NCBI GenBank assembly: GCA_963677925.2 | Contig: CAXXYH010000003.1 | Location: 1,440,001-1,504,000 of the forward strand | Direction of reading: 5' to 3' | Origin: Spirochaetia bacterium | GTDB lineage: Bacteria > Spirochaetota > Spirochaetia > UBA9216 | Length of the DNA stretch: 64,000 bases | Part shown: one piece after another, positions 13,779-52,100 of the stretch | How the letters are laid out: every line of letters starts with the position of its first letter | How positions within the stretch are numbered: the first letter of the stretch is position 1 | Notes under the pieces: generated by a model | The model's database searches: none | What the model was told of the DNA's origin: nothing | What the model saw: the letters and a program-made list of their open reading frames with translations, nothing else | Made by a program: the position numbers and the translations under genes

Positions 13779-14165
13779 ATGTTAAAAGGAATACATCACG
13801 CAGCAGTTATCTGCTCTGACTATGAAAAATCAAAAAACTTTTATGTAAATATACTCGGCCTGGAGGTAATTGCTGAAAACTACAGAGAAAAAAGGGATTC
13901 ATACAAGCTGGATCTTAAACTGCCGGATAATACACAGATTGAATTGTTTTCTTTTCCTGACTCACCGGCACGACCAAGCTATCCTGAAGCAAGGGGATTA
14001 AGGCATCTGGCATTTACTGTGGAATCTGTGGAAGAATCATCAGCATATCTGATTGAAAACGGTATAGAGGTTGAAGGCATACGCATTGATGAGTATACCG
14101 GAAAAAAGTTTACCTTTTTCAAAGACCCTGATGATCTTCCGCTGGAAATTTATGAGTTGCGGTGA
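13779..14165 (+). CDS. VOC/glyoxalase family protein (YaeR-like)
   Basis: IHHAAVICSDY, IELFSF, GLRHLAF, FFKDPDDLPLE. Confidence 0.92.
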   Translation: MLKGIHHAAVICSDYEKSKNFYVNILGLEVIAENYREKRDSYKLDLKLPDNTQIELFSFPDSPARPSYPEARGLRHLAFTVESVEESSAYLIENGIEVEGIRIDEYTGKKFTFFKDPDDLPLEIYELR

Positions 14166-14240: not shown

Positions 14241-15077
14241 TTATAAAGTCCCACGCAGTCTCGGATCAAGTGCATCACGCAGACCGTCCCCGATAAAGTT
14301 AAGAGACATTACCAGCATAACTATGCATATTCCAGGTGAAACTGCCAGTATGGGAGCGTTCATAAGGTAGCTCTTGCCATCGCTTATCATCCCGCCCCAG
14401 GTAGCTGTCGGAGGTGTTATCCCGAGTCCGAGAAAACTCATTCCGGCCTCTGCAAGTATAGTAAAACCAACAGTCTGCATCATCATTATCAGCATAGGAG
14501 ACAGAGAATTATGCAGAACATGCTTGAAGATTATTCTCCAGCTGTTAGAGCCGATTACCTTCTGTGCAAGAATGTAATCCATTTCCTTGACACTTAATAC
14601 CTGAGCCCTCATAAGTCTTACATACCCGGGAATTGCAGTAACTCCTAAAATTATAGTCAGGTTCAAAACACCTCCGCCCAGAACAGCGGACAGGGCAATG
14701 GCAAGTATTATCTGCGGAACCGACATTATCATTTCAATTATCCTCATGATTACCGCATCAATAATACCTCCGAAATATCCGGAGACCATTCCAAGCACTG
14801 CTCCGATCACAGAAGCAACACCTACAGCCAGAACACCTATTAGAAGCGAAATTCTTGCTCCGAAAATCAATCTGGAGAGGATATCTCTTCCGAATTTATC
14901 GGTACCCAGTAAATGCTGTGATGAAGGCGATTTAAGTATGTTATACAAATCCTGCTTATTCGGATCATTAGGTGCAATATAATTTGCAAATAGAGCGAAA
15001 ATAATAAACATAAGAATAATTGCAGAACTAACTACAACGACTTTTCTCTGGAACATTGTTTTAAGTATTTTGTTCAT
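14241..15077 (-). CDS. oppC: Peptide/nickel-type ABC transporter permease (OppC/DppC)
   Basis: HLLGTDKFGRD, GLRDALDPR; multiple TM helices. Confidence 0.9.
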   Translation of the reverse strand: MNKILKTMFQRKVVVVSSAIILMFIIFALFANYIAPNDPNKQDLYNILKSPSSQHLLGTDKFGRDILSRLIFGARISLLIGVLAVGVASVIGAVLGMVSGYFGGIIDAVIMRIIEMIMSVPQIILAIALSAVLGGGVLNLTIILGVTAIPGYVRLMRAQVLSVKEMDYILAQKVIGSNSWRIIFKHVLHNSLSPMLIMMMQTVGFTILAEAGMSFLGLGITPPTATWGGMISDGKSYLMNAPILAVSPGICIVMLVMSLNFIGDGLRDALDPRLRGTL

Positions 15078-15089
15078 CTATTCAGTCCC

Positions 15090-16037
15090 CTATCCGTTAA
15101 CTCTGATACGCGGATCAATATATCCGTAAAGCAGATCTACAATAAAATTTGATGTACAGAAAACAAGTGAAACAATAAGGACGCAGGCTTGCAGCATAAA
15201 AAAATCTTTTGAGGCAACACTGTAAATTATCAATTGCCCCAACCCCGGCAGCTGAAAGACACTCTCAATGAATACCGAAGTGCCTATCATAACTCCGATT
15301 TTCATTCCCATCAGAGTTACAATTGTTACCATTGTATTTTTAAGTGCATGACCATAGATAACGTTGATTTCCTTTAATCCCTTCGAACGAGCAGTTCTTA
15401 TATAATCCTGCCTGACAACTTCAAGCATACTGGATCGTGTCTGGCGGGTAATAACTGATAGGTTAACAATACCCAGACAAACAACGGGCAGGATAGTCTG
15501 TTTAATGCTTTCTCCAAAATCCTCCCAGGGCCAGACGAAACCGAAGGCCGGAAGAAGTCTCAGCTTTACACTGAAAATCAAAATCAGAACTATTCCCAGC
15601 CAGAACATAGGAGTACAGGTTCCTATATTTGCAATAGCTGTTACAAGTGTATCTTTCCATGTACCCTTATTCACCGCTGTAAATATTCCCAGAACAATCC
15701 CAACGAACGTACTTGTCAGAAGAGCAATTATTGTAAAATAAAATGTTACGGGAATTCTGCTGGCAATTATTTCTGCTACTGGTTTATTGAATTTAAAAGA
15801 CATACCAAAATCACCATGCAGCACATTCCATAGCCAGTTAATATATCTGACGATAAATGGTTTGTCCAAACCCATATAATTATACGTTTCTTCATATTGC
15901 TGTTTTGTTGCATTTTCGCCGATCACAGCCGAAACCGGATCTCCCGGTATCAAATAAAGCAATAAAAAAGAAAAGAAAGACACGAGCAGCAGTACAATTA
16001 CAGTTTGAACGACTCTCTTTCCAATAAACCCAATCAT
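15090..16037 (-). CDS. oppB: Peptide/nickel-type ABC transporter permease (OppB/DppB)
   Basis: PGDPV, DYIRTARSKGL, ESVFQLPGLG, DPRIR. Confidence 0.9.
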   Translation of the reverse strand: MIGFIGKRVVQTVIVLLLVSFFSFLLLYLIPGDPVSAVIGENATKQQYEETYNYMGLDKPFIVRYINWLWNVLHGDFGMSFKFNKPVAEIIASRIPVTFYFTIIALLTSTFVGIVLGIFTAVNKGTWKDTLVTAIANIGTCTPMFWLGIVLILIFSVKLRLLPAFGFVWPWEDFGESIKQTILPVVCLGIVNLSVITRQTRSSMLEVVRQDYIRTARSKGLKEINVIYGHALKNTMVTIVTLMGMKIGVMIGTSVFIESVFQLPGLGQLIIYSVASKDFFMLQACVLIVSLVFCTSNFIVDLLYGYIDPRIRVNG

Positions 16038-16127
16038 TATTACCTCCGCTTCTCCAATAACTGATTAATATAAAGTATTTAAATTAATCATTTTCACATT
16101 AAGAAATATTTACTTTTTGAAATTTCC

Positions 16128-16167
16128 TGCAATACAGCCCGCAGTGTTTAAGCCGCGGGGTATTGCA
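16128..16167 (-). terminator. Stem-loop after the substrate-binding protein gene (partial terminator or stabiliser)
   Basis: TGCAATAC..CCCGC / GCGGG.GTATTGCA inverted repeat between oppA and oppB. Confidence 0.45.
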
Positions 16168-16180
16168 ATTATAAGCTTAT

Positions 16181-17821
16181 TTATTCATCTATCTTCATTT
16201 CTTCCGGAGTCCACTGGATTCCTATTCGTCCGAACCCTGTAAGTCTTTCACTGGAAAACAGGTTTGAACCAAATGCCATCGTACCAATCAGAAGGTCTTC
16301 ATAACCTATGTAATAAGTAAGGGCTTTGAGTGATTCAAGACTGTCGCCCTTTGCTGTAGTCAGAGAATAATTCAGCAGCTCCGGCATTGTCATGCCTGCA
16401 TATTCAGCATATTCAGATGGAAGTTTATCTCTGGTAATAACCTGAGTTCTGTCAATTCCTTTGACATACTGAGTAGGACTATCCGAGAAAACAATTCCGT
16501 AATAATCAAGCGGATTTATATAGATACCGGTCAACTGGACAATCATGCCTTCCCATGCATCACCGTTAACGCCCATCATCTGAGCGATCTCTGAATACTG
16601 AACAATCTTTAATTCAATATCTATAAAGATTTCTCTAAGCATACCCTGCACTGCAGTTGCAAAAGGAAGATTCTGCGAAGTTGTCCATAAGGCAATTTTG
16701 CACAGATTAGAATCGCTGTATCCCTTTGAAGACATTATCTTTTTAGCAGCTTCTACGTCATATCCCCGAATATCATCAAGTTCTTTAACATATGCTGAGA
16801 CAGACGGATCAATCCATTGGGTCGAAGGTGCATCAATTCCGAATGATAAAGCTGCAACAAGTGCGTTTCGATCAAGTCCGAAAGAGACAGCCTTTCTTAT
16901 TTCAGGATCGTAGAGCGGATTATCAACTTTGGCTCCATTTACGGTTACAGTCTTATCTTTACTGTTCGGGATAAGAGCTCTGGTTGCAGCCGGAAACTGT
17001 ATTGCTTCATTAACATATCCCATATCCTGCAGTTCTTTTGAAACAGAGCTGTCTGTCGGTGCATAGAGATCAACATCTCCAGACAAAAACTGAGTCTTTG
17101 CTATAGTCTGATCTGGCTGCGGAATAATATAGATCTCGTCAATCATCGGCTTACCCGGCATTCTGTAGTTAGGATTCTTTACAAAAGTCAGACTGGAAGC
17201 AGGTACCCATTCACCAAGCATAAAAGGTCCTGTTCCAACAGGATGAGATTTAGCGTAAATCTTTCTGTCCTCTTCTGTAGCACCGCCTTTTTCATAAGCA
17301 GTCGGGGATGCTATTACCCTTGCAGCAATTTGTGCCAGAATGTTGTTTCTCCATTGATCCCATTTGCAGACAACGTTTCCATCGGAATTAACAGTAATCT
17401 CAGGTTTTCCGAATTCATTTCTTCCGGCTTCCATCCATTTTTCAAAGTTCCATTTGATGGCTTCTCCGTCACATACTGTTCCATCTGAAAACTCGACACC
17501 GTCTCTTACAACAATGGTGATTGTTTTAGAAGCCGGATCAATAATAAAGTCTTCAGCAAGGAAAGGCTTTGTATTGCCTTTTTCATCATATCGACCTAGC
17601 TGTTCATAAACCAGCTGATAGAGAATCAACTCATTAGCTGTCCCCTGATCCGGCGGAAAGAAGCTTTGCGGCTCGGTATGGATCATTTTCATAACGAGAG
17701 GACCTGATGATTTTTCAGAGACAGATGAACCTGTTTCTTCCTTTGAATTGGAACAACCTAGAACTCCGATAATCAGAAAGCTGATAACAGCAATCCTGAA
17801 AAACAATGTTCCCTTTTTCAT
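16181..17821 (-). CDS. oppA: ABC transporter substrate-binding lipoprotein, family 5 (OppA/DppA-like)
   Basis: Start at ATG 17821 (MKKGTLFF...VLGC lipobox); FSDGT, PVGTGPF, KNPNY motifs. Confidence 0.88.
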   Translation of the reverse strand: MKKGTLFFRIAVISFLIIGVLGCSNSKEETGSSVSEKSSGPLVMKMIHTEPQSFFPPDQGTANELILYQLVYEQLGRYDEKGNTKPFLAEDFIIDPASKTITIVVRDGVEFSDGTVCDGEAIKWNFEKWMEAGRNEFGKPEITVNSDGNVVCKWDQWRNNILAQIAARVIASPTAYEKGGATEEDRKIYAKSHPVGTGPFMLGEWVPASSLTFVKNPNYRMPGKPMIDEIYIIPQPDQTIAKTQFLSGDVDLYAPTDSSVSKELQDMGYVNEAIQFPAATRALIPNSKDKTVTVNGAKVDNPLYDPEIRKAVSFGLDRNALVAALSFGIDAPSTQWIDPSVSAYVKELDDIRGYDVEAAKKIMSSKGYSDSNLCKIALWTTSQNLPFATAVQGMLREIFIDIELKIVQYSEIAQMMGVNGDAWEGMIVQLTGIYINPLDYYGIVFSDSPTQYVKGIDRTQVITRDKLPSEYAEYAGMTMPELLNYSLTTAKGDSLESLKALTYYIGYEDLLIGTMAFGSNLFSSERLTGFGRIGIQWTPEEMKIDE

Positions 17822-17832
17822 ATACACACTCC

Positions 17833-19836
17833 TTAGATAATATTTACGCAACTAACATAATGCTGCGTATTAATTTCTTTTAATGGCGGCTGAATAGAAC
17901 AGGCTTCAGTTGCATTAGGACACCTGTCAAAAAACACGCACCCTTCAGTCTTTTTCAGTAAGCTGCTCACCTCACCTTTTACAGAATCAATATTTCGATT
18001 TTTCTCAATCTCCGGATCCGGTACAGGAATAGCAGAAAGCAGAGATTTAGTATAAGGATGTACAGGATTTTTATATAACTCATCGCAGTCAGCAGCTTCA
18101 ACAACTCTGCCCATATACATGACTATTATTCTGTCACTGATATGTTTTACAACAGACAGATCATGTGCTATGAACATATATGTAAGGCCCAGGTCAGCCT
18201 GAAGTTTTTCAAGCAAATTTATAATCTGTGCCTGTATCGATACGTCGAGGGCCGAGATGGGTTCATCACAAATAATAAAATCAGGGTTACTTGCGAGTGC
18301 TCGTGCTATTCCTATACGCTGCCTCTGCCCTCCTGAAAACTCATGAGGAACTCTCTCTGAGAGTTCCGGAGATAAACCGACTAGCGTGAGGATCTCGGAA
18401 ACCCGTTTACTGTATTCTTCCTTGTTATTATAAATTCTGTGAACCAGCAGCGGCTCACCTACTATGCTTCCTACAGTTTGTCGCGGGTCCAGGGAACTGA
18501 AAGGGTCCTGAAATATCATCGACATTTTGCTTCGGTATTTGCGCATCTTTGATTCAGACAAACCTGTAATATCTTCGCCGTTAAAAATTATCCGGCCTGA
18601 TGTTGGTTCATACAGTTTTAAAATAGTTTTAGCAAGTGTTGTTTTTCCGCATCCTGATTCTCCGACAACGCCAACAGTCTCGCCTTTCCGTATTTTAAAC
18701 GAAACTTTTTCAACGGCTTTGAGCTCAACCTTCGATTTTGTAATAAAAGATTTTGATAATTCTTCAAGACTTATTATTACCTTTTCTTCGATCACCTTTT
18801 GGGAAACCATCCTGGAATCTGCTGAAAGCTCTTCATCTTCCCTGCCGGCATAATAGCAGGCACATTTATGTGTAAGGCTGCCGTTAAACTCAGATAATTC
18901 AGGAACACCGTCATTTTTACACTTTTCTCCCGCATAAAGACATCTCGGAAGAAACATGCACTCCTCACCCCGCAATGCAAGATTCGGCGGCATACCATCG
19001 ATTGGTATAAGCACCCGCTCTTTTGAGTCATCAAGCCTGGGGATAGCTTTCAACAGTCCTTTAGTATAAGGATGAACCGGAGATTTAAAAATCTCCAGAC
19101 AGTCTCCTTCTTCTACAACATTGCCGGCATACATCACATAAATTCTATCTGCATATCTGGCCACAATGCCCAGATTATGAGTAATGATGAACAATGCCAG
19201 ATTTCTTTTTCTGACTATATTTTTCAGAAGTTCCAGAATCTGTGACTGCATAGTTACATCCAGAGCAGTAGTCGCCTCATCTGCAATTATAATTTCCGGC
19301 TCAGCAGCAAGAACCATCGCAATCATTACTCTTTGCCTCATTCCGCCGCTGAACTGGTGCGGATAATAGTCAAACCTGTCTTCAGCGTCCGGAATTCCTA
19401 CCTCTGTAAGAAGTTCAATCGCCCTTCTTTTTGATTTTTCGGAATCATACTTCAAATGCAGTTTGATTGACTCAGTGATTTGCCTTCCGATAGTGTAGAG
19501 CGGATTCAGCGAGGTCATCGGTTCCTGAAAAATCATACCGATTTTACCTCCGCGAATATTTCTCATCTTCTCACTTCCGGCAGGATAATCAGAGATATCG
19601 ATTCCGTTTATCTTTACTGTTCCTCCCACAACCTTTCCGGGAGCACTTATCAGCTTCAGAAGGCTTAATTGGGTTACAGACTTACCGCTTCCTGATTCTC
19701 CTACTATTCCGACAGTCTCTCCCGAATCAATATAAAAGGAGACATTATTGGAAGCCACAACAGTTTTTCCATCCACAAAGAATTCAGTTTTAATATCATC
19801 AACATTAAGAATATGCTCCAAAATTAGTACCCCCAA
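17833..19836 (-). CDS. Fused double ABC ATPase (OppD-OppF)
   Basis: Two Walker A ([16 protein letters not shown]), two FSGG signatures, two oligopeptide C-terminal HPYT/Cys domains; start may be TTG at 19821. Confidence 0.92.
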
Positions 19837-19862
19837 AAAAGCTGTGTAAATTACAATTTATT

Positions 19863-21254
19863 TTAATTACTGCACATTCTGTTTTGCGTCTTAAAAACAG
19901 ATAAAAGCAGAAATCCGATCGCTATAATACTAATACCAATAAATGCCGCATTAATTCCTCTTGCATCTGCAGTGCCGCCGGAGCCTGTTGCTGTCCTTGA
20001 AAATGTCTGCATTACTGCAACAAACAAAGCAGATCCGAATGCACCGGCAATACTGCGCAAGGTTAAAATCAAAGCTGAACCATGCGATATGTATACCGAA
20101 CTTAACGTACTCAAGCCCCAGGTCACCAAGGGCATCATTGTCAATGTAAGCCCCAGGACCCGCATAGCATATAATGTTGAGATATAGATAACAGGAGTTG
20201 AGGAATCGACAAAGGACAATCCTATACAGCCGAAAAGGATTGAAGCGCTGCTTACAATCGACAGCATTCTTATTCCAAAGCGATCATAAAATTTGCCTGC
20301 AACCGGACTGACTACAGCCATCAGCATAGACCCAGGCAGCATTACTAATCCCGAGCCGGTTGCCGTTAATCCTTTAACCCGCTGCAGGTAGATCGGCATG
20401 AGAGTTGATGTACTGATTAAGACCATAAATACAATGCAGCTCATAATTACAGAAATCCTGAACTCATAATTGATAAACGTCCGCATTTCAAGAAGAGGAT
20501 CTTTGATTTTCAATTGCCTGCTCACAAAGAAGAACAATATTATCAATCCTAGAATCATCGGCAACAATGCTGTAATAAGACTGGAAGTAGTCAAACTGAT
20601 ATTTCCTATTCCAATCAAAAATAAAGAGAACCCGATACTGCTCAGCAGGAAAGAAACAAAGTCAAATGAGGTTTCTTCATTTTCCAATACATTCTTCATT
20701 GATATCAGAGAAGCTATAAAGAAAATAATCATCAGTACGAGAGCGATAATGAATATATACCGCCAGTTGTAGTTGTCAATTATTATGCCGGCCAGAGTCG
20801 GAGCAATAACCGGCGCCAAGCCGAGTACTAATCCGTAGATACCCATAGCCGTCCCCCTCTTCTCCAGAGGGAATATTGTAAGAATAACAACTTGAGTTAA
20901 AGTTAGAATTACCCCTGTTCCCAAGGCCTGCATAAGCCTTCCCAGCAGAAGGATTGCAAAAGTGTCGGTCAATGAAGCCAACGCCAGACCCATAATATAG
21001 AAGATTATTGCTATTAAATGCAGATTTCTGGTTTTATATCTCTTTATCAAAAAGGCTGTGATAGGAGTCAAGATTCCCATAATCAGTGAATATATGCTTA
21101 TCAGCAATTGGCCGGTTGTCATCGGAATATTGAAATCATTAGTAATTCCCGGCAGAGCAACCACAAGTGCAGTATGAAGAAAAGTCCCTACAAATGAGCA
21201 TGATATAAAAATTATGAAAATCAAGTTCTTCGATTTCATTAAAGTCCTTTCCAT
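19863..21254 (-). CDS. MFS transporter, DHA2 (LmrB/EmrB-like)
   Basis: About 14 TM helices; GRLMQALG, RGTAMG, APVIAPTLAG motifs. Confidence 0.88.
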   Translation of the reverse strand: MERTLMKSKNLIFIIFISCSFVGTFLHTALVVALPGITNDFNIPMTTGQLLISIYSLIMGILTPITAFLIKRYKTRNLHLIAIIFYIMGLALASLTDTFAILLLGRLMQALGTGVILTLTQVVILTIFPLEKRGTAMGIYGLVLGLAPVIAPTLAGIIIDNYNWRYIFIIALVLMIIFFIASLISMKNVLENEETSFDFVSFLLSSIGFSLFLIGIGNISLTTSSLITALLPMILGLIILFFFVSRQLKIKDPLLEMRTFINYEFRISVIMSCIVFMVLISTSTLMPIYLQRVKGLTATGSGLVMLPGSMLMAVVSPVAGKFYDRFGIRMLSIVSSASILFGCIGLSFVDSSTPVIYISTLYAMRVLGLTLTMMPLVTWGLSTLSSVYISHGSALILTLRSIAGAFGSALFVAVMQTFSRTATGSGGTADARGINAAFIGISIIAIGFLLLSVFKTQNRMCSN

Positions 21255-21258
21255 AAAA

Positions 21259-22926
21259 TTAAAAAATCGTTTTTAAATTTAGCTCTACTTTTTTTTCACC
21301 GTGCTTTCGGCTGAACTGTTTAAGAAAAGTCCATGCAGCACGGCTTTGATCATAAACAGCTCCGTGCGGCATATTCTTTAAAAGGGTGTATCCTACCCGT
21401 ATCTCTCCATACTGGTTACAAAACCAGTATGTCTTCATTCGATCGCCGTCTGTATACCCGTTCTCTTCTGTATAAGTATTTGATTCGTCATGTATTAAAT
21501 CAGGCTTGAAAGGCAGGGGTTCCGATGAATCGTTTTCAACTATATTGCAGTGATTTACTTTCAGCATACTCTCAATCAGACTGTCTACATCCTTTCCAAG
21601 CGGAACCTTCGCATCGTTATCGCCTGTAAATATCATGCATGGAATTTCATAATCGCTTTCCAGCAATTCCCTGAAATCATTAACAAACGGGCCGCTCCAG
21701 GGAGATACTGCAGCAAATAATTCAGGCTGATAATTCGCCATTTCCCTTGTCAGCATTGCACCGTTTGAGAACCCTGTCATGTATACCCGGCTTTTATCTA
21801 TTTCGTATTTATCAAATAGTTCATCTATGATTAAGCTGAACACGGTATTGTCTCTGTCATAAAGCCAGATATTCTGTGGAGAATCCGGCAGGACCAGGAT
21901 AAATTCTTTTGTCTCATCTGCAAGTTTATCCCAGCCGTTTTTTGTCGAAAAAATCCAGGAAGGTTCTCCTCTTCCATGAACACTGAAAACAACAGGCATA
22001 TTTTTTGCTGTAGAACCAGAAACACCATCAGGCAGATAGGTAAAATAATCATATACTCTGTCTTCAACCGAAACACTGTCTTTTATAAATCTTGAGGAAT
22101 TGTAAAAATCGTATTTACTTAGACAGGGCTTAGGCGTACCATCCGGTGAATTTTTCCATCTAATAAACTTATTGAAAAATTTTTCCATAAGGACTTTCGG
22201 CAGATCTCCGTAAGATTCAGCTTCTGTAATTGAAAGTCGTAACTGGGCAGCCTTATCAGACTCGTTACTTAGTAATCTTGTTGATATTCCTCCGAGATTA
22301 ATTTCTTTACCGTCATCGGTCAGCCTGTTAACCTTGCAGAAGTATTTTTTTACAGTATCTAAATCATCCTTCCCTGAGTTAATTATCCATATGCAGACAG
22401 GAATATCTGAATTTTTCAGGTTGTAATCACTGCTTACATCGGGTACCAGCCAGTGATCAGAGTAAGCCTCCGCAGAACTGTAATTATCTGGAACCCCGTC
22501 GATCAGTACTATTCCTGCAAAACGATTCGGGTATGCTACTGCGGTATTACCTGCAAAAACGGCTCCATCATCATAACCGACAAGATAAATAATTGTCTCC
22601 CAGCACCATACAAATCCGTCACGGCCTGGAATACTGTCGCCCTGTTTTGATTTGAATTTCTGCCTGGCGGCGGCATAAATATCAGGGATAAGGGATACGG
22701 GTTCATTGGCCCAACCGTTCTTCACCAGAGGCATTACCAGAACTGCGCCGTCTTCTTCTACCTGCCTCAGCCAGCCAGAAGTCTCTGCAAACTGCTGTGC
22801 CGATTTATACTCTGAAGCAAACTGAGCAGGAGCACATACAAAAATAGTTTTAGCCGGTGTATATGTATTTGCTTTTTCAGACACATAATAAAAAATATCC
22901 AAAGTATCTAAATTACTATTATCCAC
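21259..22926 (-). CDS. Tandem-domain esterase (PHB depolymerase/LpqC-like)
   Basis: C-terminal domain VHGRG, VYMTGFSNGA, GDND, MPH; N-terminal domain is a similar fold with GYDDGA in place of GxSxG. Confidence 0.75.
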   Translation of the reverse strand: MDNSNLDTLDIFYYVSEKANTYTPAKTIFVCAPAQFASEYKSAQQFAETSGWLRQVEEDGAVLVMPLVKNGWANEPVSLIPDIYAAARQKFKSKQGDSIPGRDGFVWCWETIIYLVGYDDGAVFAGNTAVAYPNRFAGIVLIDGVPDNYSSAEAYSDHWLVPDVSSDYNLKNSDIPVCIWIINSGKDDLDTVKKYFCKVNRLTDDGKEINLGGISTRLLSNESDKAAQLRLSITEAESYGDLPKVLMEKFFNKFIRWKNSPDGTPKPCLSKYDFYNSSRFIKDSVSVEDRVYDYFTYLPDGVSGSTAKNMPVVFSVHGRGEPSWIFSTKNGWDKLADETKEFILVLPDSPQNIWLYDRDNTVFSLIIDELFDKYEIDKSRVYMTGFSNGAMLTREMANYQPELFAAVSPWSGPFVNDFRELLESDYEIPCMIFTGDNDAKVPLGKDVDSLIESMLKVNHCNIVENDSSEPLPFKPDLIHDESNTYTEENGYTDGDRMKTYWFCNQYGEIRVGYTLLKNMPHGAVYDQSRAAWTFLKQFSRKHGEKKVELNLKTIF

Positions 22927-22956
22927 AATATCTCTCCTGTTCCTGAATAGGCCTGC

Positions 22957-24117
22957 TTACGAAGTCTTTGCTGAGGTAGGATTATAAAGTCCTACTGCCT
23001 CTCTCTTCTTTCCGGATACTGCGGCCTCATCAAACCTCATATACTTAACTCCCAGCCTGTTGCAGTATGCAAATGCAAGATGAATCATACCGTCCCGGCC
23101 CTGCATCATATACGGATATTCATATTGACTGTTGTTTGTTGAGTTCTCCGGACCTGAAAAGCCTTCTCCCGGTTCCATATTCCGAATCAGCGGCCAGGTC
23201 GTTCCACCATCTTCCGACAAGGCAACCGCTACCGGACATCTAAGTCCGGGCCAGGAAGATACCCCGAATTCAGCTTCCGGAGCTCTGGTCGGATTATACG
23301 CAACTGCTATTCTGCCGCTTTCCAGTTTCAGCGCACTGATGCTTGAATTATTATTTGGAAGAATTGTCGGTTGAGGAATAGACCATGTGTCGCCGTAATC
23401 ATTGGATTCGCTTCTGTATATAAAATCTGCAAACCTGCTTCTCATTAGAGAGATCAGATGCCCGGTATCCAGTTCGATAATATTTGCGTGTACACGGCCA
23501 TTGCTCTCCGACATCTGTACCGTGCGCCATGAAACACCCTGATCATCAGAGAGCCTGAAAATCGTAGGGTCACCGGACAGATCATTCACATCAGGACTGC
23601 ATGACCAGTTACTGAAAATCCATCTTCCGTTTGAAAGGACCTGAATGGGCTGTCTGCAGAAACTACCTTCTTCTCCGAACAGGATCTCAGATTCCGTCCA
23701 GGTAATTCCTCCGTCGAAGCTTTTTTGATAACGGATAACAGAAGTAAACTGCATATTGTCATGCCCTTCAGCACGTGCAAGCTGTGAAGTATATACAAGC
23801 CATATTTCTCCTTCGTTTTTTAGAAAAAACGAAGGATTTTGTTCGCTTCTGGACGGATCGTTAGAAACTTTTACCGGACTCTCCCATTTATCCGAACCGG
23901 CGGGCAGTCTTGAACACACTATGCTGATATCCGGGCTGCCCTCAAATGAACCGGCAAACCAGGCACAGAGAAGATCTCCGTTCGGTAATTCCAGCATGGC
24001 CGGCGCATGTGCTGTTTCATACCCGCCCGGAGGAATCAGGGCTTCAAGGGTGCCCATCTTATCATTTATAAATATTCGTCCATCCACGGACATGCCGTTC
24101 ATTTTTATAAAATTCAA
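22957..24117 (-). CDS. BNR/Asp-box sialidase-like glycoside hydrolase, cytoplasmic
   Basis: Four Asp-boxes (SFDGGITW, SDDQGVSW, SNDYGDTW, SEDGGTTW), PNNNS, YEYP; no signal peptide. Confidence 0.87.
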   Translation of the reverse strand: MNFIKMNGMSVDGRIFINDKMGTLEALIPPGGYETAHAPAMLELPNGDLLCAWFAGSFEGSPDISIVCSRLPAGSDKWESPVKVSNDPSRSEQNPSFFLKNEGEIWLVYTSQLARAEGHDNMQFTSVIRYQKSFDGGITWTESEILFGEEGSFCRQPIQVLSNGRWIFSNWSCSPDVNDLSGDPTIFRLSDDQGVSWRTVQMSESNGRVHANIIELDTGHLISLMRSRFADFIYRSESNDYGDTWSIPQPTILPNNNSSISALKLESGRIAVAYNPTRAPEAEFGVSSWPGLRCPVAVALSEDGGTTWPLIRNMEPGEGFSGPENSTNNSQYEYPYMMQGRDGMIHLAFAYCNRLGVKYMRFDEAAVSGKKREAVGLYNPTSAKTS

Positions 24118-24169
24118 ATCTCCACTTCCTTATAAATCTTGCTATAGTAAAAAACTCTATTGGATTTAT

Positions 24170-25150
24170 TCAAAGTCTGTTCATCAAAAACTTAAAGGCC
24201 GTTTCGTCAGCCTCCACACCCAATGTCGGACCATGACCGCCTAAAGAACAAGACACATACATCGCATCCGCTTCGGCATCCGCCAGAAGCTTATACAGTT
24301 TCTCACTCTGCCCTATCGGGACAACCGGATCCTGACCTCCATGAAGAATAATCATCGGAGGACAATCAGAGCTTACATAATTTACCGGACTGCATTTTTC
24401 TGCCAGTTCAATATATTTCCAGTCCGGATCCTGCATATTGTTTGTTGAAAATAATTCTTCCAGTCTGGATAAAAATGCAGTTTTGTCCGGCCACCCTAAT
24501 ATGCATGACCAGAGATCAATAAAGCCAAGGCCTTTCTGACCGACCTCGGTTGAAGATAGGTCCTTTTCCCGGCTGGCTTCAGCTAATCCTTTCTTTAATA
24601 TTTCAGGAATGTCAGCAGGTGCATAATAAATCGCTGCAGCTTTCACATCGCTGCCGTACTCCAGATTTCCGCCGACATCGCCTTCAATGCTATTATCTCC
24701 GGAACTCATGGCAACCATCGCAGCCAGATGTCCGCCGGCGGAATTGCCGAAAACGCCTATTCGCTCAGGATCAATGTGATATTTTTCCGCATTAGCTTTT
24801 AAAAAACGGATAACGGCTTTGCTGTCATGGATGCAGGCGGGGAAAGGAGCCTGGGAGGCAAGCCTGTATGCAGGTGATACGATTGTGTACCCCTTCTCTA
24901 CAAGACGTATTAATTCACGGATATATACGGCCCGCTGAGTAATCTGCTTGTATTCACCCCACATCCAGCCGCCGCCGAAATAATATACGATACATGGTCC
25001 GGGGTCTTTCTGGTTAAGGTCCTGATAGATATCCATCTTCAGAATGTCAGAACTTCCATCGGAAAGAGGCACTTCAGCAAACTCAACATCCTCAAAACGG
25101 GGAGGTCTGCCCGGAGGACAGAGAGGTTTAATTTTCGGACCTTTATTCAT
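24170..25150 (-). CDS. Alpha/beta hydrolase (HSL/BD-FAE-type esterase)
   Basis: FGGGW, YRLA, GNSAGG, HGGQDPVVP, GGHG. Confidence 0.88.
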   Translation of the reverse strand: MNKGPKIKPLCPPGRPPRFEDVEFAEVPLSDGSSDILKMDIYQDLNQKDPGPCIVYYFGGGWMWGEYKQITQRAVYIRELIRLVEKGYTIVSPAYRLASQAPFPACIHDSKAVIRFLKANAEKYHIDPERIGVFGNSAGGHLAAMVAMSSGDNSIEGDVGGNLEYGSDVKAAAIYYAPADIPEILKKGLAEASREKDLSSTEVGQKGLGFIDLWSCILGWPDKTAFLSRLEELFSTNNMQDPDWKYIELAEKCSPVNYVSSDCPPMIILHGGQDPVVPIGQSEKLYKLLADAEADAMYVSCSLGGHGPTLGVEADETAFKFLMNRL

Positions 25151-25162
25151 ACATTTTCATCC

Positions 25163-26050
25163 TTACTGTTCGTAAGTTATACCAAACTCGTTCAATAACT
25201 CCAGAATCCGGTTATCCAGCTCGGCATCAGCCATAAGAGACGGGGCGCGATTATTTCCAACCGACGGATTATTGACATACACTGCCCGCTTAACCAGAGC
25301 CGGCCCGAATCCAAGAGCATATAGCTTTGTCCTGAACTCAATCAGTTTTATCTGAAGTTGTTCTGCAGACTCCATCTGGCCCAGCTCAAAGAGAGTACAA
25401 ATTCTGTTAACCCATCCTGGAACAATATTCGACAGACCGGAAACGCAGCCTGATGAACCTTTTTTCAGACCGTGAAGAATCTGTGAATCAGCACCGGCCA
25501 GGACTTCAAAGGATTCCGAAGCTATTTCACAGTATGCATCAAGATGATCAAGTTTACCGCTGCTGTCTTTAATTCCGGCGATATTCCCATGTTTTGAAAG
25601 TTTCTGTACCGTATCCGGAAGTACACCATTCTGGGTTCTTGCAGGGATATCATATATGTAGACAGGCACAGCTGACTCATCCGCAACCCTGCTGTAATGC
25701 TCATAAAGACCTTCCTGTGTGCAGTCAATAAAATACGGGTTGATAACTGCTACTGCATCAACACCCAGTCCGGTAAATCTCTCAATAAGCCTTAGAGTCT
25801 GGTAGGTAGAAGGCGCACCTGCATTGGCAATTACCCGAACCTTGCCGGAAGCTTCTTCAACAGCAGCTTTTATAATTATTTCTTTTTCGCTAGTCAAAAG
25901 ACTCGCAAAATCTCCGTTTGTTCCGCAGACGAGGAGATGATTCCCGTTTTTTATCTGCCTTCGCATTTGAGCCCTGGTGCTTTCAAGATCAACCGACTCA
26001 TCTTTACGATATGCTGTTATTACTGCAGAAAATGAATATATATTTCTCAT
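25163..26050 (-). CDS. DapA/NanA-family class I aldolase (probable 2-keto-3-deoxy-acid aldolase)
   Basis: GTNGDF, YDIPART, GIKDSSG (Schiff-base Lys); catabolic gene context. Confidence 0.85.
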   Translation of the reverse strand: MRNIYSFSAVITAYRKDESVDLESTRAQMRRQIKNGNHLLVCGTNGDFASLLTSEKEIIIKAAVEEASGKVRVIANAGAPSTYQTLRLIERFTGLGVDAVAVINPYFIDCTQEGLYEHYSRVADESAVPVYIYDIPARTQNGVLPDTVQKLSKHGNIAGIKDSSGKLDHLDAYCEIASESFEVLAGADSQILHGLKKGSSGCVSGLSNIVPGWVNRICTLFELGQMESAEQLQIKLIEFRTKLYALGFGPALVKRAVYVNNPSVGNNRAPSLMADAELDNRILELLNEFGITYEQ

Positions 26051-26057
26051 AGTATCC

Positions 26058-27083
26058 TTAAACCAGTCTTACTCCCATTTCAATAGCCTGAATCATGCTT
26101 TCAGGGTTTGCCCGGCCTTCGCCGGCCTTTCCGAAAGCCGTGCCATGATCAACTGATGATCTGATTATGGGGAGACCAAGCGTAATATTTACTCCCGACA
26201 TGGAAAGCCAGGTGTTTGTTTTCTGATCAAAATTGAATCCCGCAAGCTTTGTCGGTATATGTCCCTGATCATGGTACATAACCACCACGATGTCATACTG
26301 CCCTCCCTTCATTTTCGAGAATACAGTATCAGGAGGCAGGGGGCCTTCAACAATTTTCCCTGACTTCACGGCTTCTTCAACAGCAGGTATTATCTCTTCA
26401 ATTTCTTCAGTTCCGAACATTCCATTCTCACCGGCATGCGGATTCAATCCTGCCACCGCAATTCTTGGATTTTCAATATCCATCTTTTTAAGAGCATCAT
26501 ATGCCAAATTAATAACTTTCAAAATCCGATCTTTTTTAGTCCTTCTTATTGCCTCCTGCAGCGAAACATGTGTGGAGACATGCACTACCCGAAAATCACC
26601 TTCTGCCAGCATCATTGCATAGTCTTTGGTATTAGTTAATCTGGCGTAAATTTCAGTATGTCCGGCTTCCTTAATTCCGGCGGCATTAATTGCTTCCTTA
26701 TTAATGGGCCCTGTAATTGTTGCATCTATCTCACCTGATAGTGCAAGCATAATAACCTTTTCGATGTAGTCATATGAGGCTTTACCGCACATTGCTGAAA
26801 CTTTTTTATACTCAAGTTCAGCTAAATCTACATTTGCCATATCAAGAACATCGATTGTTCCGTACTGATAAAGACCATCAGACGGCTTCGTTACAGCTCT
26901 GGTTTCAAGATTGAGTCCTGAAAACTTAACAGCTTCATTAAATACAGCTAAGTCGCAGACAACAAGAGGTCTGCAAATTTCATATACATGTTTTTCATTT
27001 AAAGCTTTTGCTGTTATCTCAGGCCCAATCCCTGCAGGATCCCCGACACTTATTCCGAGAATAGGTTTTGTTTTTTCAGTCAT
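26058..27083 (-). CDS. pdxA: PdxA-family dehydrogenase (PdxA2, D-threonate/D-erythronate 4-phosphate dehydrogenase)
   Basis: GDPAGIGPE, GHTE, LNPHAGE, MYHDQG, RSSVDHGTA; adjacent DUF1537 kinase indicates PdxA2. Confidence 0.92.
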   Translation of the reverse strand: MTEKTKPILGISVGDPAGIGPEITAKALNEKHVYEICRPLVVCDLAVFNEAVKFSGLNLETRAVTKPSDGLYQYGTIDVLDMANVDLAELEYKKVSAMCGKASYDYIEKVIMLALSGEIDATITGPINKEAINAAGIKEAGHTEIYARLTNTKDYAMMLAEGDFRVVHVSTHVSLQEAIRRTKKDRILKVINLAYDALKKMDIENPRIAVAGLNPHAGENGMFGTEEIEEIIPAVEEAVKSGKIVEGPLPPDTVFSKMKGGQYDIVVVMYHDQGHIPTKLAGFNFDQKTNTWLSMSGVNITLGLPIIRSSVDHGTAFGKAGEGRANPESMIQAIEMGVRLV

Positions 27084-28243
27084 TTTTCCCCCAGTAATTT
27101 CATGTAGATTGATTCAATCTGTTCTTTAGAAAGCTCAATTGGATTATTATCCATTAGACGTCTATTCTGGTATGCATTCTCAACCAGTGCCGGAATATCT
27201 GCTGCTGTCACATTGAAGGCAGCCAGCGATGATATGATTTCGAGATCCTTCAGCAGCTGATGCAGTTCTCTTGTCAGATATTCAACCGGGTCAATTTCAG
27301 TATTGGTATTATCATATCCGAAACATTCTGCAACCAGAGTGGTTTTTGCAATATCAGCTGTAAGATTTATTTCCATGACAGACGGCAGCAGCATAGCATT
27401 TGCCTGACCGTGCGGAATATGAAATACAGTACCAAGCGGGTAGGACATGGCATGAACCGCATTGGTACCGGAAAGAGATATACACATCCCTGCAAAATTT
27501 GATGCTATGAGCATATTCCACCTGGCTTCAAGATCATCACTGTTTTTGAAAGCTTTTCTTAGGTTTTGAGCAATACGCTTTATGGAATCCAGAGCAAGCA
27601 GGTCACTCATGCTGTTCGCTTTCACAGACAGAAAGCACTCAATCGCGTGGCAAAGAGCATCCATTCCGGTAGTTGCAGTTATCCCTGAGGGTAATGTTGT
27701 TGTTAGAACCGGATCCAGAAATACAAGGTCCGGCAGAAGTCTTCCGCTGATCACCGCCGATTTAGTACCTCTGTCAGGAATTGCAATTATAGAATTTTTT
27801 GTAGCTTCAGAGCCGGTACCGGCTGTGGTGGGTATCAGGGCTGTAAATACGGAATGTTCCGGAACATCAGCACCATCAAGCAGCTGGAGAACATTTTTGT
27901 CCGAATGAATCAGTACTGATAAAAGTTTTCCAATATCAAGAACTGAACCGCCGCCTATTGCTACAACACCATCAGGCTTATAGGCTTTTGCTTTTTCTAC
28001 AACGGCATCTACATCAGGAACACCCGGTTCTCTTGGAATATCAGTGTAAGAATCAACTGATATACCTGATTTTGAGAGATATCCAAGAATCTTTTCTCCA
28101 ATTCCGGAATTTACAATTCCGGAATCCATTATCAGAAAAATCCTTTTCTTTGCGTATGAATCGAGGATCCGGCCTATTTCCTTACTCGATTCTGCTCCGG
28201 AAATTGTTCTTCCCGAAGCATTAAAGTCAAAATTATTATTCAT
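27080..28243 (-). CDS. Iron-containing alcohol dehydrogenase
   Basis: Start ATG 28243; GGGSVLD, PTTAGTGSE, DALCHAIE, HAMSY, HGQAN. Confidence 0.9.
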   Translation of the reverse strand: MNNNFDFNASGRTISGAESSKEIGRILDSYAKKRIFLIMDSGIVNSGIGEKILGYLSKSGISVDSYTDIPREPGVPDVDAVVEKAKAYKPDGVVAIGGGSVLDIGKLLSVLIHSDKNVLQLLDGADVPEHSVFTALIPTTAGTGSEATKNSIIAIPDRGTKSAVISGRLLPDLVFLDPVLTTTLPSGITATTGMDALCHAIECFLSVKANSMSDLLALDSIKRIAQNLRKAFKNSDDLEARWNMLIASNFAGMCISLSGTNAVHAMSYPLGTVFHIPHGQANAMLLPSVMEINLTADIAKTTLVAECFGYDNTNTEIDPVEYLTRELHQLLKDLEIISSLAAFNVTAADIPALVENAYQNRRLMDNNPIELSKEQIESIYMKLLGEK

Positions 28244-29513
28244 TACCAGCTCTCCGTAATTTATTCGACAAATATAACAATATTTTTTCAAAGGCGTCCT
28301 GCTCACCATATGATCCAGCCTTTGTAATAATCAGAATCTCACGTCCGCTTACCGGATGTACCGCTATAGCAACAGGAATACCAGGCAGAGCTTCATCGAC
28401 CAGCTGAAGATAGTTGATATTAAGCTGTTTGAGGATATGCAATGCTGTGTCTCCGCCTGAAAGCAGAAAGACATCGATCCCGCTTTCTTCCAGCAGTCTT
28501 TTCACTGAATTCCCGGCAACCGAACCTATTTTACCTGAGTCAATAACCATATTCTCACTGCAGGATTCACTCTCGGTTTTAAGAATGACAATGTTATTTT
28601 TTTCAAAATCAGACTTAATCTTATGAACTATTTTCTTAACCTCACTCTCCGGCGAATTTATCGCTCCGGAAGTTGACAGGATTGTACTCTCCGCTTTAAC
28701 TCTGTTTTCCAGCCATTCAGTCTGCCGTAAAGTTGTGTCCATTAGACTTCCAATCATAAATAGAAATCTGTAATCATCATTAAGTTTTATTATGGCAGGT
28801 GGCAGCGTTTTATAGACATCATCGAACATAGCATGATACAGGCCTGCTGCACCCACAAAAAGAACTTTTCTATGAATTGAAGCGAATGCGTCTTTTACCA
28901 TCCTCAGGTCTTCAACATTTTCTGAATCTGCAATGATAATCCTGGTATCATTGTCCATCATTTTCAAAATGTGCCTGTTTAAGCTCTGTGGAGTTGTTCT
29001 TATCTGTTCAAGCATTAAATTGTCAATTTCCCTGTTTGTCTGGCAGGATATTATATATTTCACGTCAGAACTTTTTACGGGAGTGAATGGATCACTGCTT
29101 ATTTCTGTTTCAGCAAGGGGTGTACCGTTGATAAAACACTTTCCGGAAACCACAGTTCTTCCGTTTCTAGGGGCAGCAGGCGCAACACAGACAAGATCAA
29201 AGCCTTTTCCGTCAATCATGGCATCTATTTCTGCCCCGACATTACCCCGAAGAGTTGAATCAATTTTTTTAAAGACTTCTACACCTTCTTCTGAATACTG
29301 TTTTACAGTTCTCAGAACTTTTGAATATGCATCCTTACTTGATAACATTCTGGTATTAGTATTTACGACTAGAGTACCTTCGTTTTGACCCGGAAATGCT
29401 CCGTCTGAATCTGCAACAACTCCTACAGATTTATCAAGTGATAAAAAATGAATTCCAGTGTCGTTAGCGCCGGTTAGATCATCAGCAATGATAAGTCGTT
29501 TATAATTATTCAT
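28236..29513 (-). CDS. Four-carbon acid sugar kinase (DUF1537, DtnK/DenK-like)
   Basis: IADDLTGAND, KKIDSTLRGN, SGGDTA, TKAGSYG. Confidence 0.92.
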   Translation of the reverse strand: MNNYKRLIIADDLTGANDTGIHFLSLDKSVGVVADSDGAFPGQNEGTLVVNTNTRMLSSKDAYSKVLRTVKQYSEEGVEVFKKIDSTLRGNVGAEIDAMIDGKGFDLVCVAPAAPRNGRTVVSGKCFINGTPLAETEISSDPFTPVKSSDVKYIISCQTNREIDNLMLEQIRTTPQSLNRHILKMMDNDTRIIIADSENVEDLRMVKDAFASIHRKVLFVGAAGLYHAMFDDVYKTLPPAIIKLNDDYRFLFMIGSLMDTTLRQTEWLENRVKAESTILSTSGAINSPESEVKKIVHKIKSDFEKNNIVILKTESESCSENMVIDSGKIGSVAGNSVKRLLEESGIDVFLLSGGDTALHILKQLNINYLQLVDEALPGIPVAIAVHPVSGREILIITKAGSYGEQDAFEKILLYLSNKLRRAGNE

Positions 29514-29526
29514 TTGTAGTTATTAG

Positions 29527-29543
29527 AGCTATAACTGTGCCAA
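29527..29543 (-). promoter_or_regulatory. sigma54 (-24/-12) promoter for the DUF1537-kinase operon
   Basis: Minus strand TTGGCACAGTTATAGCT (GG-N10-GC), divergent from a GAFTGA activator. Confidence 0.8.
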
Positions 29544-36241: not shown

Positions 36242-36244
36242 AAT

Positions 36245-37321: not shown

Positions 37322-37346
37322 AATTTTCTCCTTAGTTATAGGATAT

Positions 37347-51067: not shown

Positions 51068-51128
51068 AAATTTTCCTCCTAAATATAGTTCTCAGACAAA
51101 ATATGTCTGCTGAAAACTGTTGTAATAA

Positions 51129-52085: not shown

Positions 52086-52100
52086 TTTTCAAGACCTCCA

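Follow-up and report, generated by a model that had tools for sequence, protein, structure and literature searches.

Here, we describe an operon of twelve genes from a Spirochaetia bacterium (GTDB lineage Bacteria; Spirochaetota; Spirochaetia; UBA9216) that most likely breaks down a 2-keto-3-deoxy sugar acid with two carboxylates into pyruvate and dihydroxyacetone phosphate (DHAP). The operon lies in a 64 kb stretch of contig CAXXYH010000003.1 (NCBI GenBank assembly GCA_963677925.2, positions 1,440,001 to 1,504,000), referred to here as the window and numbered from 1 to 64,000, and had been proposed as catabolic in a preliminary description made from the DNA letters. We give a probability of about 0.5 to the general scheme set out below with Dha (3-deoxy-D-lyxo-heptulosarate) or a close derivative as the substrate. 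Window proteins were scanned against Pfam and NCBIfam. All twelve open reading frames (ORFs) of the single co-directional run described earlier are present on the minus strand from 29513 to 14241, with intergenic gaps of at most 143 nt, and their Pfam families agree with those first given. Five of these genes, encoding a DUF1537 kinase, an iron-containing alcohol dehydrogenase (Fe-ADH), a PdxA-family enzyme, a class I aldolase and a sialidase-fold propeller, carry the argument.

These five genes form a real and widely shared gene cluster. At E ≤ 1e-10, 3006 propeller homologs were found among 5506 candidates scored, and the best 80 of 357 relatives from a scan of species-representative genomes with the propeller were taken as related loci, whose six-frame ORFs were searched with the window proteins to give raw match counts. 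The propellers of the relatives are 58-70% identical to that of the window across phyla, with hosts among Lachnospiraceae, Oscillospiraceae, Erysipelotrichaceae, Streptococcus, Enterococcus, Succinivibrio, Brachyspira and Brenneria (Bacillota, Pseudomonadota and Spirochaetota). Beside the propeller stand PdxA in 65 of the 80 loci, the aldolase in 63, Fe-ADH in 62 and the kinase in 61, and at the 40 loci flanked by 8 kb or more on each side these figures become 40, 39, 38 and 38, respectively. All four partners are together in 56/80 loci and in 37/40 of those with full flanks, a clear answer to the earlier call for a survey of co-conservation. Gene orders vary (kinase-ADH-aldolase-PdxA-propeller; ADH-PdxA-kinase-...-propeller-aldolase; or divergent modules), and therefore co-location appears to be maintained and not simply inherited. 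One 835-residue protein (P0123) is a fusion of a DUF1537 kinase with a propeller, 65% identical over the propeller part, and would support a functional link and nothing more. Two others (P0127 and P0128, about 935 residues) join a fumarate-reductase-like flavoprotein to a BNR_2 domain of 38-40% identity.

The cluster is also found in Escherichia coli. In strain APEC O18 (L091, NZ_CP006830.1) an island between glnS and nagE encodes a DeoR regulator, a D-threonate 4-phosphate dehydrogenase and dtnK, with Fe-ADH, a DHDPS-family protein, TerC, a sialidase-family protein, a YhcH-family protein and an SLC13 permease on the divergent side. These last six genes were searched together as the upper module, which 1047 of 5426 complete E. 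coli genomes, the type strain among them, carry at ≥80% coverage; DNA of the kinase/dehydrogenase pair was matched in 1050 of the 5426. The Brenneria propeller gene, used as a DNA query against E. coli, gave no match. Between the window and E. coli, identity is 40% for the propeller, 39% for the aldolase and 27% for the kinase. The TerC-family gene of the island (L091 13484-14234) is annotated as frameshifted, and TerC also occurs within the Brenneria clusters. The cluster is an accessory trait in the lineage of the window itself. Among 31 genomes searched, its own included, the genus had one other genome and the family nine more, all ten without an ortholog, and two genomes of other families gave weak matches (26-36% identity). 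One further contig (L029) is labelled as a Bacteroides thetaiotaomicron metagenome-assembled genome, yet it bears a Firmicutes-style cluster with a PrpR_N regulator; a propeller profile search of that genome (G031) returned the ortholog itself and no further relative, and the contig may be mis-binned.

The two enzymes of the lower module are a kinase (28236-29513, minus strand; Pfam SBD_N 190 bits and NBD_C 76 bits), of the four-carbon acid-sugar type and D-threonate-kinase-like, and a PdxA-family oxidative decarboxylase (26058-27083, minus strand; Pfam PdxA 343 bits), which is PdxA2-type by context. D-threonate kinase, an NCBIfam model built for Gammaproteobacteria, is the best model for every cluster kinase tested, that is, for the kinase of the window and for 6/6 from other loci (171-611 bits); the Brenneria kinase passes the equivalog cut-off (611 vs 450 bits), and the E. 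coli kinase is annotated dtnK by NCBI. The earlier proposal of a D-threonate lower pathway is thus borne out at the level of family, and the lower module is, as far as model scores can tell, of the D-threonate type. DtnK is a characterised D-threonate kinase in the passages available from PMC10971088, and PdxA2 is presented as an organic-acid catabolic paralog of PdxA in those available from PMC9997740; both cite Zhang et al. 2016 (PNAS). The window PdxA scores 334 bits against TIGR00557 (cut-off 290). A search of the window's genome (99.63% complete) for PdxJ gave no match, with matches in control genomes, and since PdxJ is lacking, this PdxA is not part of 1-deoxy-D-xylulose 5-phosphate-dependent vitamin B6 synthesis.

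The aldolase (P0002; 25163-26050, minus strand; Pfam DHDPS 193 bits) carries the hallmarks of DHDPS/NAL class I aldolases (Schiff-base Lys, catalytic Tyr, GxxGE-type motif), read in its sequence as K161 in GIKDSSG, Y133 and GTNGD, along with YDIPARTQ. Across the cluster aldolases K161 and Y133 are found in 61/61 and Arg138 in 60/61, together with a private GTNG[ED] motif; position 47 is E in the 61 cluster orthologs and D in the enzyme of the window. We take this numbering to coincide with that of E. coli DapA, where R138 would bind the carboxylate of aspartate semialdehyde; NanA has Leu at the position. Among NCBIfam models, the cluster aldolases score best with DapA and the DHDPS-family 2,4-dihydroxyhept-2-ene-1,7-dioate aldolase (TIGR02313), and both of these enzymes handle a C7 diacid made from pyruvate and a C4 acid-aldehyde. 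NanA models give the window aldolase 90-111 bits, lower than DapA (TIGR00674), which at 195.4 bits does not reach its cut-off of 206.15. A better DHDPS-family gene, with 332 bits to Pfam, lies elsewhere in the genome (C4:2137376), and in a FastTree phylogeny of 27 rows the window aldolase falls inside the clade of cluster aldolases (SH-like support 99), apart from this DapA-like paralog, on a long branch whose exact place within the clade is unsure. An identity of the window aldolase as DapA was rejected on these three grounds. A metagenome scan with the aldolase returned one locus, with 50% identity and a different, crowded ORF pattern.

Aldolases of this family free pyruvate from 4-hydroxy-2-oxo acids. 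Taken together, Arg138 and the D-threonate module require a remainder of OHC-CHOH-CHOH-COOH after aldol cleavage, which Fe-ADH would turn into a tetronate, and for this reason the substrate is proposed to be a 3-deoxy-hept-2-ulosaric acid. Fischer projections worked by hand place the hydroxyls of Dha (D-lyxo) at C4 left, C5 left and C6 right; C5 and C6 become C3 and C2 of the product, which with C2 left and C3 right is D-threonate, in agreement with the stereochemistry put forward for Dha at the outset. Several independent comparative lines strengthen the original route from a C7 ulosaric acid to pyruvate and D-threonate, and from the latter to DHAP, as a route that we infer, and do not single out Dha specifically.

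The neighbours of the cluster in relatives may bear on the nature of the substrate. Neighbour counts use 77 loci, the propeller having been lost in three of the 80 through greedy ORF choice; neighbours without a match to the window were clustered and representatives scanned for families. A CitMHS carrier and a DUF386/YhcH protein are each found in 32/77 loci, a fused tripartite ATP-independent periplasmic (TRAP) transporter protein DctQM in 21/77, a TAXI binding protein and a conserved protein of 115 residues in 15/77 each, and separate DctQ and DctM in 11/77 each. Less frequent are a DeoR regulator (9/77; Proteobacteria and Brachyspira), an SDR and a Na/Ca exchanger (8/77 each), a P-type cation ATPase (5/77) and a MatE efflux pump (5 loci), with KdgT and altronate/galactarate dehydratase as occasional neighbours. 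YhcH is described as a metalloprotein that supplies NanA with open-chain sialic acid (PMC8141875, in the text available). YhcH and the di/tricarboxylate-type carriers of the relatives would point to an ulosonic acid that is cyclic and bears more than one carboxylate, and the Na/Ca exchangers and P-type cation ATPases fit a metal-chelating polycarboxylate. A cyclic, metal-chelating diacid would likewise fit the anomerase, the carriers, the genes for Ca handling and the PrpR_N sensor discussed below. The hosts are from the gut, the rumen or plants, trees included, and this range fits pectin-rich habitats.

The 115-residue protein follows the CitMHS gene and matches no Pfam family above threshold (e.g. 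L025:11202-11549, L047:15889-16236 and L066:13590-13946). It occurs together with DUF386 in 0/77 loci, and exactly one of the two is present in 47/77. Its model (pLDDT 82) has a fold like those of VOC proteins and methylmalonyl-CoA epimerase (Foldseek E 2e-4), the matches listed being mostly of the VOC superfamily, and we suggest that it may be a non-homologous substitute for the YhcH anomerase. A VOC protein of the SMU1112c/YaeR family (206 bits vs cut-off 140) is encoded in the window at 13779-14165 on the plus strand, convergent with the operon and just past its end; no relation between it and the 115-residue protein was detectable by hhalign (probability 0.85%).

The propeller (22957-24117, minus strand; Pfam BNR_2 199 bits) is the most conserved gene of the cluster. 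Its model (pLDDT 82.9; model m21acc11cbed9) matches GH33 sialidases in Foldseek with E values of 7e-19 to 1e-16, and VIA alignment to the Micromonospora viridifaciens sialidase gives Z 36.3, with a root-mean-square deviation of 2.5 Å over 312 residues, and to human cytosolic Neu2 Z 35. The predicted fold is unmistakably that of a GH33 sialidase, six-bladed and with BNR/Asp-box repeats. Similarity in sequence is restricted to the central blades (profile E 2e-10 to NanC). In partial alignment R226 aligns with the Arg of NanB FFRT (the second Arg), R293 is weakly aligned to the region of the third Arg of the M. viridifaciens sialidase (E 3.5), and Tyr334 is conserved in the E. coli homolog and Tyr332 is not. 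Searches of PDB with N-terminal and C-terminal sub-profiles and with single-sequence halves gave no significant alignments, and a likeness of the N-terminal part to GH93 exo-arabinanase was set aside as not significant (E 0.14). From these alignments the protein appears to be related to sialidases, with many Arg residues conserved and a catalytic set that differs in part. The sialidase fold of the preliminary description is thus upheld (Z 36); the ketosidase role given with it remains a guess, with a catalytic set that seems partly missing in the partial alignment.

No signal peptide was visible by inspection on the propeller or on either esterase of the operon, and a lipobox was visible on the substrate-binding protein. 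The propeller is therefore taken to be cytoplasmic, and it adjoins carriers for small acids. A conserved cytoplasmic propeller beside such carriers argues against a role in de-acylating or trimming imported oligosaccharides, a role that the first account had given to the esterases. Import of oligosaccharides is itself doubtful, the CitMHS, SLC13 and TRAP carriers of the relatives being typical of small acids and monomeric sialic acid having a precedent as cargo of an SBP_bac_5 importer, SatABCD of Haemophilus ducreyi (PMC8461474).

From the gene content, folds, co-location and D-threonate-type lower module we infer the following scheme, in which the reactions and the substrate are proposals throughout and the propeller step is the most conjectural. 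Import of the substrate would be by the ABC system or, in relatives, by a carrier of the CitMHS, SLC13 or TRAP kind. In the cytoplasm, the esterases and the sialidase-fold protein would convert an imported ester, lactone, ketoside or other cyclic derivative to the free ulosaric acid, and in most relatives a YhcH-type or VOC-fold protein would open the ring. The DHDPS-type aldolase would then cleave the ulosaric acid to pyruvate and 2,3-dihydroxy-4-oxobutanoate (tartrate semialdehyde, the 'threuronate' of the earlier account), which Fe-ADH would reduce to D-threonate. Phosphorylation by the DUF1537 kinase would give 4-phospho-D-threonate, and the PdxA2-type enzyme would oxidise and decarboxylate this to DHAP and CO2. 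The propeller might hydrolyse a small Dha ketoside, remove arabinofuranose from the acid-labile disaccharide of side chain D, or convert a lactone, an anhydro form or a 2,3-ene. A more specific form of the scheme, which we advance tentatively and at odds somewhat below even, is that the cluster is the missing route for Dha of pectin rhamnogalacturonan II (RG-II), with two unprecedented catalysts: a cytoplasmic sialidase-fold enzyme that bears His in place of the usual Arg and Glu and acts on a small ulosaric acid derivative, and a VOC-fold substitute for YhcH.

Several points weigh against the scheme with Dha. No result names the substrate, and Dha was chosen as the sole natural 3-deoxy-heptulosaric acid known to us. 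Were free Dha imported, a cytoplasmic sialidase-fold enzyme would have no obvious job. In partial alignments to NanB and NanC (domain E 1e-8) an invariant His210 stands where NanB has the Glu partner of the Tyr nucleophile, a Glu that we take to be E541, and an invariant H37-A-P stands where the RIP motif of sialidases is expected, the N-terminal profile having no significant sialidase alignment; the apparent His210 for Glu and HAP for RIP disfavour ordinary ketosidase chemistry. The kinase of the window does not reach equivalog level (242 bits vs cut-off 450), its PdxA is below the cut-off of the D-threonate-4-phosphate dehydrogenase model (307 vs 583 bits), and identity to other clusters is 27% for the kinase and 32-40% for the aldolase. 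The operon lacks both DUF386 and the VOC-fold protein, as do 10/39 full-flank loci, and the only DUF386 of the genome is in an unrelated yiaL-like cluster with an FGGY kinase and a TIM barrel. The -12 element of the promoter described below is unusually close to the kinase ATG, at only 14 nt, and no ribosome-binding site is visible. Finally, the loci were picked through the propeller, so that counts such as 37/40 are conditional on it, and related genomes are non-independent samples.

The same enzyme logic could act on another cyclic polycarboxylate that yields a 4-hydroxy-2-oxo C7 diacid and is first unmasked by the propeller and esterases, such as a different stereoisomer, an ulosaric acid derived from a bacterial glycan or a small plant conjugate. 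We regard this as unlikely, in spite of some features that it would explain: a highly conserved cytoplasmic propeller next to small-acid carriers suggests that one defined small substrate, other than free Dha, has to be processed; some loci have the esterases as well (BD-FAE in 9/77 and Est2 in 11/77); and efflux pumps nearby, of DHA2 type in the window and MatE in 5 loci, could remove an aglycone once it is released. However, no candidate compound can be named, the D-threonate-type kinases fit the D-lyxo configuration exactly, and the host range matches pectin-rich habitats. The kinases also speak against an amino variant, in which a hydroxylated, tetrahydrodipicolinate-like C7 amino-diacid would be cleaved to pyruvate and 3-hydroxy-aspartate semialdehyde, and 4-hydroxy-L-threonine made from the latter would be phosphorylated and passed to the canonical PdxA reaction. 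The aldolases do score near or above the DapA cut-off of 206 bits (225 and 215 in two relatives, 195 in the window), PdxA passes TIGR00557, and a DUF1537 kinase is reported to phosphorylate 4-hydroxy-L-threonine (PMC10971088, citing Thiaville 2016, in its available passages). Yet the kinases score best with the D-threonate kinase model, PdxJ, which would use the product, is missing from the genome, the cluster has neither an aminotransferase nor a deaminase, and the YhcH anomerase and sialidase fold point to an O-heterocyclic sugar acid; the amino variant is accordingly very improbable.

That same sialidase fold, with its very strong match to GH33 (Z 36), would suit a variant cluster for sialic acid or 3-deoxy-D-manno-octulosonate (Kdo), with the propeller acting as sialidase or Kdo hydrolase and the aldolase as NanA or Kdo aldolase. 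YhcH is a protein of nan operons (PMC8141875, as far as its available text goes), and SBP_bac_5 and TRAP systems import sialic acid (PMC8461474). Against this, Pfam finds the NanK, NanE, NagA and NagB families (ROK, NanE, amidohydrolase/deaminase) in 0/12 operon proteins, and neither N-acetylmannosamine nor arabinose would supply a D-threonate kinase and PdxA2 with substrate. The carriers of the relatives are of the di/tricarboxylate type, and the aldolase scores lower with NanA models than with DapA and has Arg138 where NanA has Leu, all of which makes the sialic acid or Kdo cluster a poor prospect. Hardly to be expected, too, is that the genes form no single pathway and that a pair for D-threonate use or 4-hydroxythreonine salvage merely sits beside an unrelated hydrolase, aldolase and transporters. 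A smaller pdxA-like cluster without these partners is attributed to Salmonella LT2 in the accessible part of PMC12928451, and the esterase, MFS and ABC genes are not conserved in relatives; but the four partners recur at 37/40 full-flank loci in shuffled gene orders and three phyla, the two E. coli modules occur in 1047 and 1050 of 5426 genomes, and a fusion of kinase and propeller (P0123) exists.

The remaining core and accessory genes were placed as follows, all on the minus strand. Fe-ADH (27080-28309; Pfam Fe-ADH and ADH_Fe_C), the proposed C4 acid-aldehyde reductase, reaches no NCBIfam equivalog. Its longest ORF overlaps the kinase gene by 74 nt, and because homology begins only near residue 25-34 its true start is probably Met23, near 28243. 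The first esterase, of the BD-FAE/Abhydrolase_3 type and predicted to be cytoplasmic (24170-25150; Pfam BD-FAE 180 bits), precedes the propeller, and the second, Est2 (21259-22926), of 555 residues, follows it. Est2 matches Pfam and NCBIfam families only within residues 292-532, a C-terminal half related to PHB-depolymerase/CE1-like esterases, with a GFSNGA serine motif; the N-terminal half has no family match, so that the esterase part of the 'tandem esterase' named earlier holds and the tandem arrangement finds no support in the family matches. Most relatives lack the esterases; those that have them are mainly Hungatella, Enterocloster and Erysipelotrichaceae, and their BD-FAE orthologs score 390-430 bits. 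A third predicted cytoplasmic BD-FAE esterase lies downstream of the operon (12580-13545, minus strand), with lp_1002 arylesterase and PaeX pectin acetylesterase as its best models, both below cut-off.

The transporters of the operon differ from those of its relatives. A major facilitator superfamily (MFS) protein (19863-21254) passes the cut-off of the DHA2 (EmrB-type) efflux subfamily (TIGR00711, 252 vs 230 bits) and for that reason need not be an importer; at ≥90 bits it has a counterpart in 0/77 related loci, with one weak match of 41 bits (L059). By Pfam, the Opp/Nik-type ABC importer comprises a fused OppD/F-type double ATPase (17833-19836), an SBP_bac_5 lipoprotein with a lipobox (16181-17851) and two permeases (15090-16037 and 14241-15077). 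At ≥90 bits the binding protein is matched in 0/77 loci and the ATPase in 4/77, and one locus (L077) has a weaker full set of Opp type. The best NCBIfam matches of the binding protein are nickel and staphylopine binders, all far below cut-off.

Divergent from the operon, a sigma54-dependent activator is encoded at 29716-31611 on the plus strand (Pfam PrpR_N 148 bits, Sigma54_activat 223 bits, and HTH_8, a Fis-type helix-turn-helix), with GAFTGA at residue 393. A -24/-12 element of the form TGGCAC-N5-TAGC, TGGCACAGTTATAGC, lies at 29528-29542 on the minus strand, 14 nt upstream of the kinase ATG; it is the sole match to TGGCACN5TWGC in the window, where 0.22 matches are expected by chance and at least one was seen in 20/100 shuffles. 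Sigma54 (rpoN) is encoded in the genome, and the sigma54 operon first proposed is therefore supported by the activator, the element and rpoN, with parts lying just outside 14241-29513. Scans for sigma70 and terminator consensus sequences did no better than on shuffles. PrpR_N is a sensor domain known for 2-methylcitrate binding. Expression of the operon is probably sigma54-dependent, and the PrpR_N sensor of its activator probably binds a polycarboxylate. Of the related loci, 0/45 match the strict -24/-12 pattern upstream of their first cluster gene and 1/32 match a looser one. Other Bacillota loci (e.g. L013, L047 and L063) have a divergent regulator with PrpR_N and HTH_8, a degenerate AAA+ domain and no GAFTGA, and many related intergenic regions lacking -24/-12 show, by eye, a TGTTTCA...GAAACA palindrome; from their domains these regulators look like sigma54-independent descendants of an enhancer-binding protein. 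Proteobacterial versions of the cluster have DeoR regulators instead.

Further genes of the window may be noted here. Beyond the third esterase are a histidine kinase of the dCache type and an MpsC-domain response regulator (9546-12444, minus strand). A second PrpR_N sigma54 activator (55462-57387, plus strand) is encoded divergently to a GntR regulator and an ABC sugar importer of ribose type (50045-54570). Genes for acid sugars abound in the window, with UxaC at 4503-5912 and a 6-phosphogluconate dehydrogenase, a PfkB kinase and a 7-bladed lactonase at 34787-38423.

The operon shares parts with several known systems. Catabolism of D-threonate by DtnK and PdxA2 has the same two-enzyme lower module, at equivalog level in the Brenneria and E. 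coli islands and below it in the window; here the pair is embedded with an aldolase, Fe-ADH and a propeller (and in relatives with an anomerase and an acid carrier), and D-threonate would be an intracellular intermediate and not an imported nutrient. With sialic acid (nan) catabolism the operon would share an upper logic of sialidase fold, ring-opening anomerase (in relatives) and DHDPS/NAL class I pyruvate aldolase; it differs by the lack of NanK, NanE and NagAB, the DapA-like Arg138, the cytoplasmic location of the propeller and, as placed by partial alignment, His210 at the NanB Glu, with HAP where RIP is expected. The chemistry of 4-hydroxy-2-oxoheptanedioate and of DapA has the same best models and Arg138, whereas scores here are below or just at the cut-offs and the proposed substrate is cyclic with two extra hydroxyls.

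The cluster has already been noticed in print. In the accessible part of a 2026 genome paper (PMC12928451) a 'pdxA-like cluster', GR6 of the extraintestinal pathogenic E. coli strain BEN2908, has the same set of genes (a CitT/SLC13-like carrier, NanQ-like protein, COG4692 'sialidase', DapA-like protein, Fe-ADH, DtnK-like kinase, PdxA2 and DeoR), and a similar cluster in Sinorhizobium meliloti 1021 is mentioned, credited to Thiaville et al. 2016. That text relates the kinase/PdxA2 pair to synthesis of pyridoxal 5'-phosphate and, in the part available, assigns no substrate. Compared with GR6, the version in the window is sigma54-controlled, has an Opp-type ABC importer, two extra esterases and an MFS protein, and has no anomerase. 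For Dha, the only enzyme listed in the table of a 2026 review, of which a part was available, is the GH143 Dha hydrolase domain of B. thetaiotaomicron BT1020, which acts on Dha ketosides of RG-II side chain D (PMC13501991). BT1020 is periplasmic and polymer-acting, whereas the propeller of the window is cytoplasmic. We take BT1020 to have been deposited under the name sialidase. It has no sequence or fold match to the propeller among the matches listed by Foldseek, VIA and profile searches, which says nothing either way. A literature search found no catabolic route for Dha, in keeping with the earlier statement that none was known, or for any heptulosaric acid, with Thiaville 2016 and Zhang 2016 as papers that may say more on the cluster; it also found nothing that joins D-threonate with rhamnogalacturonan or the annotation name of the kinase with sialidase. 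D-threonate, PdxA and sialidase are not mentioned in PMC12994016. The cluster is thus a sugar-acid pathway assembled from known families to which the literature found has assigned no function.

RG-II is a dietary glycan that is degraded by Bacteroides. For some sugars that B. thetaiotaomicron secretes as it uses RG-II, such as Kdo, the pathways in other gut microbes are called unconfirmed in the available part of a 2026 preprint (10.64898/2026.03.13.711244). If the proposed scheme is true, it would provide a pathway, open to experiment, for a plant sugar that is among the rarest and a physiological source for D-threonate, the substrate of the characterised DtnK/PdxA2 pair, along with a function for the 'sialidase family protein' annotated in more than 1000 E. 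coli genomes and in many Firmicutes of the gut. With the island in its type strain, E. coli offers a tractable organism in which to test the hypothesis. A route for Dha would then be found in gut Clostridia, rumen Succinivibrio, Brachyspira, the tree pathogen Brenneria and about one fifth of complete E. coli genomes, and could represent a cross-feeding trait that separates E. coli lineages.

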